Below are positions 50,991 through 57,007 of a stretch of 57,007 nt of DNA, one piece after another; the first letter of the stretch is position 1; each line of letters starts with the position of its first letter. The translations under genes were made by a program, and so were the position numbers. Under the pieces are notes generated by a model. That model was given only the letters and a program-made list of their open reading frames with translations, was not told the DNA's origin and did not search any database. The DNA is from an uncultured Pseudomonadales bacterium (GTDB taxonomy: Bacteria; Pseudomonadota; Alphaproteobacteria; UBA2136; UBA6156). The stretch covers positions 1 to 57,007 of the forward strand of contig CAZROO010000005.1 of NCBI GenBank assembly GCA_964601735.1, read 5' to 3'.

Positions 50991-51383
50991 ATGCCATTCA
51001 TCCAAAGCCTTATGGCCGATGTCGAAAACCTTACACTCATCGAAGCGCTGCGCTTCGTGAAGAGCCACCACGTCTCGCACTTGAATGCCAAGCAAACAGA
51101 GGTAAAACTCAACTCCACCTGGCCAGTCGAAAAAAAGCAGGAAGTTCTAAAACTGCTTGAAAAAAACACGGTCAACGTCAAGCTGCAGCATATCGACACC
51201 TCACCAGAGGGCCGACTAAACATGCAATTGCTTATTCCGGCTCCCCCGGATGAAGTTCAGCAAGCCATCAGCTACATCTGCAAGCATACCAAAACCGCCC
51301 GTGTTTTCGAGCGTGGTACGGCCCATATCCGCACACGCCCAAAAGGCGAACCTCGACAAAAATATGCTACAGCGAACGCTTAG
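50991..51383 (+). CDS. Hypothetical protein (~130 aa; possible ACT/ferredoxin-like fold)
   Basis: AAGGA RBS, CTTGAA promoter-like element at 50910, own terminator. Confidence 0.6.
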   Translation: MPFIQSLMADVENLTLIEALRFVKSHHVSHLNAKQTEVKLNSTWPVEKKQEVLKLLEKNTVNVKLQHIDTSPEGRLNMQLLIPAPPDEVQQAISYICKHTKTARVFERGTAHIRTRPKGEPRQKYATANA

Positions 51384-51395
51384 CTCGCACAGCAA

Positions 51396-51423
51396 AAAAG
51401 GGCGGCCACCAGGCCGCCCTTTT
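51396..51423. terminator. Bidirectional terminator
   Basis: AAAAGGGCGGCC-acca-GGCCGCCCTTTT. Confidence 0.88.
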
Positions 51424-51424
51424 C

Positions 51425-51772
51425 TTATGCCGCTATCAGGCGATTCAACGCCGCTTTCACCGCGTCGATGTCATGCACCCGGCTTACATTTGTATCCGTG
51501 TGCAAGCCGTGTTTACGGAGAGAGCCTTCATCGCCGGTCCACAGTAGAACCGGCAAGTTCGACTGCCAACCCCGCCGTATCTCGCGCCACAGGTCGGCAA
51601 CGGTTCCGTCCTGGTAAGTCTCGCTCGCCACGACAAAATCGTAGCGCTCGGCCCGAACCGCCTGCATGGTAGTGTGCACCTTGCCGCAGTCCTTTACCGC
51701 ATGCTCATTGCGCAGGGCCTTCTTAAGCTCCCAGCGCACCTTCCAGTCACCCAGTGCAATCAGAATCCGCAT
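51425..51772 (-). CDS. Stand-alone receiver-like (pseudo-receiver) domain
   Basis: MRILIALGD...RYDFVVAS...DLWREIR...LPVLLWT follows the REC topology; the phospho-Asp and conserved Lys are absent. Confidence 0.7.
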   Translation of the reverse strand: MRILIALGDWKVRWELKKALRNEHAVKDCGKVHTTMQAVRAERYDFVVASETYQDGTVADLWREIRRGWQSNLPVLLWTGDEGSLRKHGLHTDTNVSRVHDIDAVKAALNRLIAA

Positions 51773-51876
51773 AGCGGAACTCCCTATGAAATGTTTCGAT
51801 ACATCCTTACGAGGCCCATATAGGACAAAAAAGCACGGTTTCAAATAAAAAATGGGGTACCCCCTACCCCCGCTGG

Positions 51877-51949
51877 CCCACGTTGGCCCGGCGCACCAGA
51901 TCAAAAAGAAGAAGTCACCCGTAAAATCGCCGGGACAATGACGGGGCTA
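51877..51949 (+). repeat. Partial inverted copy of the structured element at 55340-55529
   Basis: Two blocks (17/18 and 21/22 identical) in the same order and with similar spacing as on the minus strand of 55451-55520. Confidence 0.75.
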
Positions 51950-52034
51950 TGGTTAGGCTACTCGGCTTTCTCCCAGCGACCTTACCTTGACCCCAAGCAG
52001 AATACACGTCCATCTCCGCTGCATGAAAGAGCGC

Positions 52035-52345
52035 CCCCGGCGCAGGCCGGGGTCTTGTCCGGGTAAATCGCTATAACACCGCCTATCCCCGGAAAATCGC
52101 AGCCACACAAATCCAATAAAAACGGCAGCCGCAAAATCCGCGATTTATCCGGGGTCTTATCCAGACAAGCCGCCATAAACACTGCCGTCATGCCACCCCC
52201 TTAGGGGGTAGGCATCCACGGGGGCGTGGTTATGGCAGAGCACCAACAAAGTCCTCCGTCATGCCCGCGCAGGCGGGCGCATCCAGGGGCTAAGCTCACA
52301 GGCCTAAATACTCACCGCCTCATCCTGACGCAGACCGGGATCCAC
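52035..52345 (+). repeat. Cluster of four REP-like palindromes
   Basis: CCCCGGC-GCAG-GCCGGGG (52035); GTCATGCC..AGGCATCCAC (52187); GTCATGCCCGC-GCAG-GCGGGCGCATCCAG (52258); CTCATCCTGAC-GCAG-ACCGGGATCCAC (52319). Confidence 0.7.
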
Positions 52346-52361
52346 CAGGTAACAGGTTTAC

Positions 52362-53912
52362 CTACTGCGAAGCCAGCAGCGTCATCGGGTCAACCGCCTG
52401 CGCCTGGCGGCGTAGCGCAAAATACAGCTGCGGCTTGTCCACGTTGCCGGTGGCACCACTCAGAGCAATCACCTGGCCCTTCTTGATCTCGTCGCCCTTG
52501 CTCACCAGCAGTTGGGTATTGTGGGCATAGGCGCTGAACAGGCCGTTGGCATGGCGGATAATCACCAGGCTACCATAGGTTTTCAGCCCGCTACCCGCGT
52601 ACAGAACGGTGCCGTTGTCGGTCGCCACCACCGGCGTGTTGGGCGGCACGGCAATATTAATGCCTTCCTGCTTCACGCCGCCGCCCTGGTTGCCGAACTT
52701 GCGAATCACCTGCCCGTGCACCGGCCACGCCAGCCCCTTGCTGCGGGCGGCCACCGGGTCGATCTTGCCCTTGTTGAAGGCGGCCTTCACCTCATCCACC
52801 GCGGTCTTGGCGGGCACGGGGTTCGCTTCGGCGGTTTCATCCTCCTCATGAGGCACCACCCGGGCAGACGCAGACGAGGCACTGGCAGAACCAGCTTCGG
52901 CGGTCTTCACCTGTTCATGCACCGGAACCTTCACCACCATGCCGCTCTTCAATTGCTGCGGCTGGCTGAAATTATTGGCGGTCATCACGTCCAACACGCT
53001 GGCGCCGTACGCATGTGCAATACGGTAAACCGTCTCGCCCTTCTTCACCGTGTGGTTCATCACCTTCACATCGTTGGCAGCGGGTTGGGCCGGGGCCTGC
53101 TTCTTCGGCCCGGCGGCGGGCTCGATACTGGCCATTTTTTCTTCAGCCGCGTCAGCGGCGGCCAACTCAACAGGCTTCACCACCTCGGCCTTGGTCTCGG
53201 CAGGGGCCATCGAACCCGTAGAACCACTCACCGGCGGCAGCAATTTGGGCGTTTGAACCAAAGGTGCACTGTTTTGTGCCAGTTGCGCATCATTTTGAAC
53301 CGTTTGCACACCGTTTTGCGATGCTGGAACGACACCCAAACGACGGTTGAGCGCCACCTGCGCATCACTCGGCGCGCCCGCCACCTTGGTGCCCGAGGGA
53401 ATCTCCAGGTTCTTGCCCACTACCAAATCGGCAGTGCTATCCATATGATTTGCTTTAAGAATTGCGTCCGGCGTGGTGTCATAGCGCCGCGCCAGGCGGT
53501 ACACGGTTTCGCCCGGCTGCACCACGTGCATCACAACCCCTTGAGAAACATCATGATTTTTACTCCAATCCTGCACCAGGCTCTGTTTTTCGGGTATCGA
53601 TGCCGCCGCCTTGGTCGGCTTGCTGGAGGGCCCAGATGCAGGGCTAATGCTTTGTAAATCCTCTTCTTTTACGCTAGATGGAGCGGTCTGGGCAGCAGGC
53701 TGGCTCACCGCCATGCTCCCCTCGCCGGCCTTGGCGCTCACCTCACGGGTAAGCGAAAAATGGCTGTTTTGCTGGGGTTCTTCACCAATACCCAGCACCT
53801 TGTTGCTATTCTGATAGCCGCTCACCACCGGCGCGGGCGTGGTCTGCGCGCACCCCACCAACATAAACATAACCCCGTAAATTATTGCTTTGTTGTGTAT
53901 TTTTTGCATCAT
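52362..53912 (-). CDS. nlpD: NlpD-like lipoprotein: two LysM domains plus M23 domain
   Basis: LVGC lipobox; HVVQPGETVY and HTVKKGETVY LysM; WPVHG..., EGINI, SAYAHN, QLYFALR (M23 lacking the Zn ligands, as in amidase activators). Confidence 0.9.
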   Translation of the reverse strand: MMQKIHNKAIIYGVMFMLVGCAQTTPAPVVSGYQNSNKVLGIGEEPQQNSHFSLTREVSAKAGEGSMAVSQPAAQTAPSSVKEEDLQSISPASGPSSKPTKAAASIPEKQSLVQDWSKNHDVSQGVVMHVVQPGETVYRLARRYDTTPDAILKANHMDSTADLVVGKNLEIPSGTKVAGAPSDAQVALNRRLGVVPASQNGVQTVQNDAQLAQNSAPLVQTPKLLPPVSGSTGSMAPAETKAEVVKPVELAAADAAEEKMASIEPAAGPKKQAPAQPAANDVKVMNHTVKKGETVYRIAHAYGASVLDVMTANNFSQPQQLKSGMVVKVPVHEQVKTAEAGSASASSASARVVPHEEDETAEANPVPAKTAVDEVKAAFNKGKIDPVAARSKGLAWPVHGQVIRKFGNQGGGVKQEGINIAVPPNTPVVATDNGTVLYAGSGLKTYGSLVIIRHANGLFSAYAHNTQLLVSKGDEIKKGQVIALSGATGNVDKPQLYFALRRQAQAVDPMTLLASQ

Positions 53913-53921
53913 ATCTCCCTC

Positions 53922-54509
53922 CTAAGATGCGTACTGCCACAGGTATTTGATGAGAATGAAAAACAGCAGCAAACCCAGCGAAATCGACATGGTCAACGCC
54001 GCCAAGTTACGTTCAATCCACTCCTTAAAGCGTGGCCCACCCCGCCATAAAAGCCAAGAAATAAGCCAAAAACGGGCACCCCGCGCAATCAGCGTTGCCA
54101 TTAAAAAGGCGGGCAGCTGGGCCCCCAACACACCGCTACCGATGGCCACCGCCTTGAACGGCAGCGGCGAGAACCCGGCAGTGGCGACAACCGCCACATC
54201 GTACCCCTGATACCAGGTTTTAAGGGCATAAAAAAAGCTCTCAAATCCATAACTTGCAGCAATCGGCTCAATGAAAATCCGGGCCACCAGATTACCCAGG
54301 ATATAGCCGCCAAGCGCACCCGCCACGCTGCCCAGCGTGGCCACCAGGGCGTAGCGGAAAGCCCTGTCCGGGTTGATGAGAGACATCGGCACCAGCAGCG
54401 ATTCAGCGGCTGCGGGGGCAAAGGCGGACTCGGCCATCGACATGAAAAACAAGGCATTTTCTGCCTGCGGTTGCTGGGCGTAGCCCGCCATGCGGTCTTT
54501 AAGAGTCAT
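53922..54509 (-). CDS. YqaA/DedA-family membrane protein
   Basis: SMAESAFAP...LLVPM, TLGSVAG, GFSPLPFK, ARGARF; start set at MTLKDR. Confidence 0.9.
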   Translation of the reverse strand: MTLKDRMAGYAQQPQAENALFFMSMAESAFAPAAAESLLVPMSLINPDRAFRYALVATLGSVAGALGGYILGNLVARIFIEPIAASYGFESFFYALKTWYQGYDVAVVATAGFSPLPFKAVAIGSGVLGAQLPAFLMATLIARGARFWLISWLLWRGGPRFKEWIERNLAALTMSISLGLLLFFILIKYLWQYAS

Positions 54510-54728
54510 ACGATGGGCAGTATACCATTGGAATTTACAAGGCCCACCACGGGCCAGGACAAAGCGTGCGGAAGTGATGCAGCACTGTCGCAGTATTGTC
54601 GGTCCGGCGTGCACGGCTGTCGGTTTTACTCCCGTAAATGTGCGCAACCGGCGCGAAAGTGTCGCAGCCTTGTCATTTTATGAAAAAAATGCGCCGGAGA
54701 GAGCCCGGCGCGGTCGCGATGGTTGGGT

Positions 54729-55214
54729 TTACACTGGTAGAGAAGACAACTTTGGCACCTTGTGCTCGGCGATGATCATGTCTGCCGACCAGGGCTGCCC
54801 CCAGACGTTCATTCCACCGGGTGTGAAGCGGGTACACCGGATGTTCTTCACCAGAACCTGGCGAGGCTGACCGGGAGTGTGAAGCACCAGGCCGCGCAGC
54901 CCACCTCCGTCGATGGGATCAGCCGGTGGGCATTCCAGCCACGAGAGCATGGGAGGATATTCCCGGCCCTCCATTGACAGTGGCGTATGCAACTTGAACC
55001 AGTGAATGGGCCTGCCATCCTTTTCGGTTTTTTCCTCTTGAACAAAGTGGGGACTGCCACGGAGCCGCAAGAGCTGAGCCTGGTGTTCATCCACCGTACA
55101 CCCGCGCCAGACCAGGTGGCTGGGAACAGCGGAAGTTAAGGACGTCGGCAGGTTGTACATGCAGACATTGAAAGCCGCGCCGAGGGTGCGGCGGAACGAT
55201 TCAGCGAAGTCCAT
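54729..55214 (-). CDS. YecM-like VOC-family protein
   Basis: HLVWR..., DGRPIHWFKLHTPL..., WLECPP resembles the YecM GRPI.LFKL..PL...ELP.P pattern. Confidence 0.6.
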   Translation of the reverse strand: MDFAESFRRTLGAAFNVCMYNLPTSLTSAVPSHLVWRGCTVDEHQAQLLRLRGSPHFVQEEKTEKDGRPIHWFKLHTPLSMEGREYPPMLSWLECPPADPIDGGGLRGLVLHTPGQPRQVLVKNIRCTRFTPGGMNVWGQPWSADMIIAEHKVPKLSSLPV

Positions 55215-55339
55215 AAGGAATCCTTGGGGTAAGAGCGGTGATTGGAAAAAGGGAGAAGTAGTTCACGCCTGTATAACGCCGCACCGTTTTTAACGGAACC
55301 CCCTCGCCCAACAACCGGGCCAAAAAGAGGGCCGCTATT

Positions 55340-55529
55340 TCCGCCTGCCCCCACGTTGGCCCGTACCCACCGAAGCGGGTGGGGGAGCCCAAGTGAACGC
55401 AAGGCCGGCGTCGGGGTTATACGGGCGGCATGGGCACCATTCGCAAGTCGTAACCCCGTCATTGTCCCGGCGGGCAACGGCATTGATCTCCCCTGTTTCC
55501 GGGCGCCGGGCCAACGCGGGGCAGGCGGA
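55340..55529 (-). ncRNA. Rod-shaped structured RNA candidate, 6S RNA-like
   Basis: 22-bp closing stem with G.U pair, internal stems GGGGAG/CTCCCC, GCCGG/CCGGC and CGGGGTTA/TAACCCCG, central internal loop, cUUCGg side hairpin on the minus strand. Confidence 0.55.
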
Positions 55530-55576
55530 GGTTTTTTCATACGTATTACCTAAATAAAGAACCGCCTGTTAACAAA

Positions 55577-55602
55577 GAAAACCGGCCTTGCGGCCGGTTT
55601 TC
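55577..55602 (-). terminator. Terminator after pal
   Basis: GAAAACCGGCC-GCAA-GGCCGGTTTTC (minus strand). Confidence 0.88.
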
Positions 55603-55615
55603 CAAATCTGCAGAA

Positions 55616-56444: not shown

Positions 56445-56699
56445 ATGCAAAGGGTGGTAAAGAATGGAGTGATTTTGGCCATTGTCGCCGGGATCCTGGG
56501 CTTGGCGGCCTGCGGTGAAACCCAAAGCGACCGGGCGCTAAGTGGCGCCGGGATTGGTGCCGGTGTTGGTGCGCTGGGCGCCGCGGCACTGGGCGGTAAT
56601 GCACTGAGTGGTGCCGCGCTGGGCGGCATTGTGGGCGCCGGGACGGGCGCGCTGACCAGCCCGCGCGATATTGATTTGGGCGCACCGTGGTGGAGATAG
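56445..56699 (+). CDS. Small glycine-zipper lipoprotein
   Basis: LAAC lipobox; DRALSGAGIGAG..., LGAPWW; AAGGA RBS. Confidence 0.85.
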   Translation: MQRVVKNGVILAIVAGILGLAACGETQSDRALSGAGIGAGVGALGAAALGGNALSGAALGGIVGAGTGALTSPRDIDLGAPWWR

Positions 56700-56805
56700 G
56701 CTAACAGGGTCACAGGATAACAGGGTTACGGAAAAAGGGGGGCAGGAAAACCGCCTTTTCAGGCGGCTTTTCCTTCCTGTCACCTGTGACCCTGTTATCC
56801 TTTAA
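56697..56805. repeat. Octamer arrays flanking a terminator hairpin between convergent genes
   Basis: TAGGCTAA-CAGGGTCA-CAGGATAA-CAGGGTTA, inner GGAAAACCGCCT-tttc-AGGCGGCTTTTCC, then CCTGTCA-CCTGTGA-CCCTGTTA-TCCTTT. Confidence 0.75.
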
Positions 56806-57007
56806 GCCGTTTACTGCAGGCGCTCCAGTACTGGGGCCACTTCTGGGTTCCAGTTTTGCCTGCGGCCTTGTCGGCCCTCCACCGGCGGCCACATTCCTTT
56901 ATGCGGTTGGTATTGGCCTTTTGCGCCATGCTCATCGGCCGCTTGGCCCTTTTATGGTGTAACGGCCCGTGGCGCGCCGGTGAATGCGCCGTGGGCCCGG
57001 CGGCCGG
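56795..57007 (-). CDS. Partial (5'-truncated by window edge) hypothetical protein with a C-terminal two-Cys helical domain
   Basis: Open frame from the edge ending RIKECGRRWRADKAAGKTGTQKWPQYWSACSKRLKG*; a PsiF-like C..W...KW..W..C pattern seen in alphaproteobacterial exported proteins. Confidence 0.7.
   Translation of the reverse strand, partial: PAAGPTAHSPARHGPLHHKRAKRPMSMAQKANTNRIKECGRRWRADKAAGKTGTQKWPQYWSACSKRLKG

Follow-up and report, generated by a model that had tools for sequence, protein, structure and literature searches.

The window, as the whole 57,007-nt stretch of DNA analysed here is called, contains two related intergenic sequences, copy A and element B. These are probably members of a small, lineage-specific, low-copy intergenic repeat family of the REP/BIME/MITE kind, and not a dedicated pair of a small RNA (sRNA) and its target. 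Their likeness would reflect common descent of repeated DNA that was spread and reshuffled by recombination or by a transposition-like process. Any units that are transcribed would, by analogy with REP/BIME, ERIC and MITE-type elements, have at most the role of a hairpin or terminator at the 3' end, affecting termination or 3'-end stability. The family is undescribed, no Rfam, plasmid-database or genome-collection match having been found. The window itself is ordinary alphaproteobacterial chromosome (lptFGD, relA/spoT, mfd, recG, uvrA, ssb, smpB, era, rnc, lepB, secDF) from an uncultured alphaproteobacterium found in wastewater, soil and the rhizosphere, and the nearest named relatives of its Pal protein are from alphaproteobacterial MAGs at ∼68–70% identity. 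The genes around the two elements all lie on the minus strand in the order pal (OmpA domain), element B, ORF161, the gene for a VTT-domain protein, nlpD (LysM + M23), a spacer, a 115-aa receiver-like ORF, yajC and secDF. A Pal relative at 74% identity is encoded in an ordinary tol-pal context without element B. Coordinates are collected in Table 1.

An earlier note on this DNA had described two short blocks of copy A as inverted matches to element B, and both blocks are present with the scores and spacers it gave. By direct reading, positions 51877–51894 agree with the reverse complement of 55503–55520 at 17/18 and positions 51928–51949 with that of 55451–55472 at 21/22. A repeat search of the window returned the inverted pairs 51928–51949/55451–55472 (22 nt, 95% complementary) and 51873–51894/55503–55524 (22 nt, 91% complementary). 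The blocks are separated by 33 nt in copy A (51895–51927) and 30 nt in element B (55473–55502), the two spacers being unrelated in sequence. Copy A had been matched to the 5' half of the element at 55340–55529; this is correct if the element is read on its minus strand, while on the plus strand the matching part is the 3' half. The description of copy A as a truncated paralogue was well founded, as this stretch is a true homologue, partial and inverted, of one arm in the hairpin at 55.4 kb.

The agreement is far above what chance would give. The 19-mer CCCCGTCATTGTCCCGGCG, common to A and B, occurs twice in 57 kb against 0.02 occurrences expected from shuffles, and the whole 77-nt collinear match has E=0.001 when BLASTN is run against the 57-kb window. 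If the two were simply GC-rich intergenic sequences that happened to look alike, the weakness of motif 2 on its own would fit (3 matches at ≤3 mismatches in the window versus 0.68 expected), but the second block is collinear with the first at a similar spacing and there are more copies, ∼85% identical to copy A over 73–82 nt. Nor is the motif common in general. Exact scans for the 19-mer found four loci in genome contigs (596 Gb) and seven in metagenome contigs, all of them isolated matches of 19–21 nt in unrelated taxa, and for this reason they are taken as chance matches. That these scans yield nothing else is explained by the poor sampling of the lineage, neither collection including the organism. 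A chance origin of the A/B match, to which we give next to no credence, is refuted by the 19-mer statistics and by the other copies.

Table 1. Positions of copy A, element B and neighbouring features in the window.
Feature	Positions	Strand	Sequence	Remarks
Copy A, solo alpha unit	51855-51959	minus sense	TAGCCCCGTCATTGTCCCGGCG-33 nt-GCGCCGGGCCAACGTGGGCCAGCGGGGG	nhmmer profile hit and family alignment
Motif 1	51928-51949		CGCCGGGACAATGACGGGGCTA (plus strand)	21/22 to reverse complement of 55451-55472
Motif 2	51873-51894		CTGGCCCACGTTGGCCCGGCGC (plus strand)	20/22 to reverse complement of 55503-55524
Intrinsic-terminator-like hairpin	51844-51870	-	GGGGTAGGGGGTACCCC then ATTTTTTATT	directly downstream of copy A
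Promoter-like block of receiver-like gene	51817-51844	-	TTGAAA-16 nt-TATATG	putative, from sequence and L023 alignment
Receiver-like orphan gene, 115 aa, hypervariable allele	51425-51772	-		ORF call, relatives, Pfam
Rest of nlpD-to-receiver-like spacer	51960-52361	-		mosaic of low-copy dispersed modules, including REP-like hairpins
Example spacer modules	52015-52055, 52075-52158, 52184-52241, 52249-52301	-		multi-copy in metagenome contigs
Element B	55340-55530			190-nt imperfect hairpin; inverted dimer of beta unit (reverse complement, 55326-55423) and alpha unit (55441-55543)
Left closing arm of element B	55340-55361		TCCGCCTGCCCCCACGTTGGCC	
Right closing arm of element B	55509-55529		GGCCAACGCGGGGCAGGCGGA	segment between arms inverted in sister strains
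T6 run after closing stem	55532-55537	+		A-run on minus strand
Terminator hairpin of pal	55580-55595	-		between pal and element B

The two alleles of element B, each with two arms, were aligned with copy A (five units; the second allele is described below), and the alignment defines a unit of ∼100 nt with common landmarks, TA[A/G]CCCCG ... GGCCAACG[Y]GGG..CAG.CGG, after which there is usually a T-run. The units fall into two subtypes, alpha with GTCATTGTCCCGGCG and beta with GACGCCGGCCTTGCG. Element B consists of a reverse-complemented beta unit followed by an alpha unit, and this head-to-head dimer therefore folds as one long hairpin. Copy A is a solo alpha unit and so matches only one arm of B. 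The nhmmer profile of the five units returned copy A, itself a training member, at 51959→51855 with E=4.7e-21. Neither this profile nor BLAST found more units in the 57-kb window, which fits a family of a handful of members, and the profile found none in the related contigs used for comparison. As a side observation, GGCGCAAGGCCACCGCGGGGCAAATGG at L007:219–250, upstream of an isocitrate dehydrogenase gene past the right end of the window, weakly resembles the hairpin arm (nhmmer E=0.02) and is perhaps the decayed remnant of a family member.

Other copies were found when Logan contigs of eight metagenomes were aligned to the nlpD-to-receiver-like spacer, and they are known over the matched part plus flanks of 30 nt. 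X1, X2, X4 and X6 each have the unit 51877–51949/58 on two extra contigs with unrelated flanks (10–11 mismatches and 2–4 gaps), and the inner 42 nt of copy A (51924–51965) on one or two further contigs. These copies are ∼85% identical to copy A, closer than element B at ∼71%, and their differences are concentrated in the inter-motif spacer. At the outer end they read ...CCAACGTGG/GTAGGCGGGGGT then TTGGTTTTTT, which is nearer to the closing arm of B, GGGGCAGGCGGAGGTTTTTT, with its T-run than to copy A's own end. A 35-nt copy of B's outer arm with the T-run was seen at another locus in the metagenome contigs, and some copies have only motif 1, attached to unrelated sequence. The copy number is low, at ∼5 detectable units or fragments of at least 80% identity. 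Many dispersed copies had been named as the sign of an ordinary repeat, and what is found is a mild form of this: two further full units and one or two fragments per genome, with other modules around them.

The remainder of the spacer is built in a similar way. Its modules are multi-copy, appear in other join orders at other loci and reach depths of up to 5–7 times that of the host contig. In X12 the depth of the contigs with other modules, which measure 10.5, 6.0 and 5.7 kb, is 12.8–14.6 compared with 13–13.9 for the host contigs, and with this equal depth they evidently belong to the same genome. Tandem Repeats Finder reported no array in the spacer, and no transposase, RAYT, recombinase or reverse transcriptase was found in the 57-kb window. 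Directly after the nlpD stop codon there is a 44-nt indel, 52302–52345, present in the window and in L022 and replaced by ∼14 nt in L005 and L006; this region is also seen as alternative short contigs in metagenomes.

Several copies thus stand at unrelated loci of the same genome, and units are found in both orientations and in a mosaic with other modules of changing order, both features being those of dispersed repeats. The comparison is closest with REP/BIME elements of enterobacteria and RIME elements of rhizobia. Like these, the family is extragenic and GC-rich, has more than one subtype, occurs singly or as inverted pairs, and shares a single spacer with different modules whose order varies, downstream of genes and beside terminators. 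REP, BIME and MITE elements are known to adjoin terminators and to fold as long RNA hairpins (PMC3184786), and REP elements were among the transcribed ‘sRNA candidates’ in an alphaproteobacterium (PMC2873474), so that such elements can be taken wrongly for sRNA genes. Unlike REP elements, which are palindromes of 20–40 nt, the unit here is ∼100 nt and not itself palindromic, it is present in ∼5 copies rather than the hundreds of classical REPs, it has no sequence similarity to described families, and the 57-kb window has no RAYT gene. The low number and the absence of a transposase, RAYT or recombinase from the 57 kb count against the repeat reading. The patchy occurrence of copy A, which is absent from the L023 lineage, supports it.

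Element B shares other features with MITEs such as Correia/NEMIS, ERIC and RUP elements, being intergenic and 190 bp in size, with near-perfect terminal inverted repeats of 21–22 bp, one long stable hairpin and no transposase. MITEs are described as long stem-loops that carry terminators or promoters (PMC3184786, PMC10969869). Unlike a MITE, B has no target-site duplication (its flanks are ...GCTATT on the left and GGTTTT on the right), which also speaks against the repeat reading. Across 12 metagenome runs B had no second full-length copy with ≥80% identity and no parent IS is known, and between strains it is the interior of B that is flipped and not the whole element. Distant-mode searches of the plasmid database with B and with the spacer gave no match, and the ORFs overlapping B have no Pfam match.

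Copy A lies at the distal end of the nlpD-to-receiver-like spacer (∼510–590 nt), far from nlpD. On the minus strand it runs into a terminator-like stem, 51870→51854, followed by T6 (ATTTTTT), and this stem is lengthened by substitution in the sister strains. Beyond it, ∼45 nt before the ATG of the receiver-like gene, is the TTGAAA-16 nt-TATATG block. The consensus promoter scan did not call this block, hence we infer a promoter here from its sequence and position. L023, whose receiver-like protein is 83% identical, lacks copy A, and homology with it begins at the T-run and promoter-like block. A strain with a 95%-identical Pal has a patatin-like gene after nlpD, with no receiver-like gene called. 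With a terminator and a promoter-like block downstream of it, copy A stands outside the leader of the receiver-like gene and forms the far end of the nlpD 3' region. Its assignment to the minus-strand leader of a ‘pseudo-receiver’ gene is thus not supported. The scan gave no promoter-like site upstream of copy A either, and Rfam gave no family at its locus at E≤10, only sub-threshold noise driven by the terminator. The predicted fold of copy A is no more stable than those of shuffled sequences (z=+0.39, and +0.52 over a larger region), so the self-complementarity of the solo unit is no greater than chance.

The name pseudo-receiver is itself weakly supported: the Pfam Response_reg match is sub-threshold, the AlphaFold model has a pLDDT of 66 and Foldseek against the PDB found nothing significant. 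The residue expected to be the phospho-acceptor is S, G or C across three alleles. The gene is a hot spot of divergence (window 51425–51850), L022 having 71–87% nucleotide and 74% amino acid identity there and 99–100% in the flanks. Between it and a 142-aa plus-strand ORF is a strong bidirectional terminator hairpin at 51380–51434 (AAAAAAGGGCGGCC...GGCCGCCCTTTTCTT), which accounts for several sub-threshold Rfam sRNA hits (STnc320, ctRNA_p42d, MicX). The gene name yecM, given previously to ORF161 (54729–55214), is not supported; the ORF has no well-supported Pfam family and YecM is matched at E=0.29 over 23 residues. In a collection of 5.8 billion proteins ORF161 has one distant relative, at 64% identity, and ORF161 and the receiver-like protein have one or two relatives each.

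Sister-strain contigs were obtained from four JGI samples and two Logan runs (L005–L009, L012). The sister strain is ∼99.5% identical to the window across 51400–55330, and copy A and its spacer are essentially identical. An unusual conservation of the copy-A spacer was considered and rejected, the strains being ∼99.5% identical everywhere save a few hot spots. Element B differs. Its arms are collinear in the sister strain, but between GTTGGCC and GGCCAAC a stretch of ∼145 nt runs inverted with respect to its surroundings (window 55362–55508; L006:1170–1320), the interior being 84.6% identical to that of the window when inverted versus 72% when collinear. The inverted allele was also present in independent assemblies X6, X9, X10, X11, X13 and X14 and the window allele in X1–X4; a rhizosphere metagenome, X6, contained both alleles together. 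Among 66 predicted base pairs three show compensatory changes between the alleles, seven are changed on one side and none is broken. The sister allele folds with z=−7.6 and −9.5 on its two strands, and in both alleles the strand carrying motif 1 folds 5–10 kcal/mol better than its complement. As pairing is kept in both alleles, the hairpin would be under some structural constraint, at the RNA or the DNA level. Motif 1 (19–22 nt) is identical in copy A and both B alleles despite the 15% divergence of the latter, which hints at a constraint on the motif. Both the invariance of motif 1 and the maintained pairing are points against a simple repeat. The unusual point of the locus is that genomes which are otherwise 99.5% identical have the hairpin interior in either orientation, in the form of two alleles with 85% identity and intact pairing.

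Adjacent to the hairpin, the sister strain has an insertion (L006:750–1140, near window 55545–55615) of about two additional tandem modules that separate pal from element B, each made of a remnant of the pal 3' end and a terminator. The modules are of two alternating pal-end allele types, ending ...CTCCAATAA and ...CTGCAATAG. This suggests that the pal terminator has been a site of recurrent recombination or duplication.

The flipped interior bears on the proposal of a trans-antisense pair, in which RNA from B would pair with a copy-A transcript and regulate the receiver-like gene or the nlpD operon. In the window strain the same-strand DNA of the two loci is indeed complementary over 22 + 22 nt. 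The proposed duplex between a non-coding RNA and an mRNA presupposed a hairpin RNA made from the minus strand, but it is on the plus strand that the hairpin has its sole terminator-like U-run. The directions supported by terminators, plus at B and minus at A, give RNAs of the same sense. Copy A, moreover, is upstream of the terminator and of the gene's own promoter-like block and not in its leader. The relative orientation of A and B reverses between strains that are 99.5% identical, so that no pairing is conserved. Motif 2 of B is GTGCAAGGCC in the sister allele and GCGCCGGGCC in the window with copy A unchanged, and thus the supposed partners do not co-vary. An antisense pair is therefore highly improbable.

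The two copies had also been remarked on as inverted repeats on either side of the nlpD block. This holds for the window strain; in the sister strain, where B has its motif-bearing interior flipped, the motifs of A and B are direct repeats. The remark raises the possibility of a recombination substrate, either A and B as inverted repeats that invert the 3.5-kb block of nlpD, the VTT-domain gene and ORF161, or B as an invertible switch of the site-specific kind, to which A would be a related site. The locus is a hot spot of rearrangement, with the tandem pal 3'-end remnants adjoining B in the sister strain, and the interior of B does occur in nature in both orientations, bounded by inverted arms of 21–22 bp. 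This resembles invertons such as fimS and hin, where short inverted repeats enclose a segment found in both orientations. Unlike an inverton, however, the two orientations of B are different alleles with 85% identity and not one flipped sequence, the ∼145-bp segment is self-complementary, the scan gave no promoter-like site inside B, and no recombinase gene is encoded in the 57 kb. For the block between A and B, the homology amounts to only 2 × 22 nt. Every contig spanning the block was collinear, no A-to-B joint was among the joints reported for the contigs of four runs, and the inversion of the 52–55.4 kb block that had been suggested was seen in none of the contigs examined; minor flipped forms of B are beyond what contigs can show. 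Taken together, a recombination substrate of either kind is very unlikely.

A more speculative variant would make B a self-inverting hairpin, the arms of its closing stem (GTTGGCC...GGCCAAC) acting as the recombination sites. Each flip would set whether CCCCGUCAUUGUCCCGGCG is sense or antisense in a transcript ending at the fixed U-run, giving a heritable switch between ‘paralogue’ and ‘antisense regulator’ for the few transcripts that bear a unit, that of copy A included. We regard this as highly improbable. If the two orientations did reflect recurrent arm-mediated inversion, the locus would offer a small natural case of rearrangement mediated by a hairpin.

Element B had been called 6S-like. 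It shares with 6S RNA (RF00013) a length of ∼190 nt, a long closing stem, the form of an irregular rod and a U-run on the plus strand. The predicted fold is stable, −115.7 kcal/mol for the plus strand (z=−5.1) and −105.9 kcal/mol for the minus strand (z=−3.3), and after the closing arms of 21–22 bp the plus strand reads GG and T6. In contrast to 6S RNA, both the minimum-energy and the centroid structure are a continuous irregular hairpin with small internal loops only and no large central bubble. Rfam gave no family for B, 6S included, at the gathering score or, with lax filters, at E≤10 on stretches of 6 kb and 271 nt, and the sister allele had no match at E≤10. An identity of B as 6S RNA finds no support in the covariance model (E≤10, either strand, both alleles) or in the predicted fold. 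The inversion of the interior relative to the U-run in a 99.5%-identical strain is in addition difficult to square with a conserved gene for a housekeeping RNA, for which, with its fixed terminator, tolerance of a flipped interior would not be expected. With no 6S match at copy A either, ‘6S-like’ is therefore a resemblance of shape alone.

A family of paralogous sRNAs is a further reading of the same data. The unit and its downstream U-run would be the 3' part of an sRNA or a 3'-UTR-derived sRNA, copy A being processed from the 3' UTR of the nlpD operon and B being a larger relative. The invariant CCCCGUCAUUGUCCCGGCG would be a putative seed or protein-binding site, and regulation of any target would depend on the CCCCGUCAUUGUCCC motif. 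A T-run follows the sense strand at A, at B and at no fewer than two other copies, and the identity of motif 1 amid allelic divergence and the better folding of the motif-1 strand of B both point in the same direction. Against this, copy A has no promoter-like site upstream and a fold like that of shuffled sequence, there is no Rfam match, some copies consist of motif 1 joined to unrelated sequence, and in the sister strain the T-run no longer follows the motif-bearing strand of B. An sRNA family is accordingly unlikely, and membership of a low-copy repeat family remains the preferred explanation. In unsampled lineages caution is needed, as a stable hairpin with a U-run and a nearby partial inverted copy mimics an sRNA gene and its target.

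One other repeat cluster in the window deserves mention. At 56698–56813, downstream of a Gly-zipper gene, there are direct and inverted repeats of TAACAGGGT[C/T]AC, with 28-nt arms that are 79% complementary and 56 nt apart, and the cluster overlaps a sub-threshold RsmY-like Rfam hit (19 bits).
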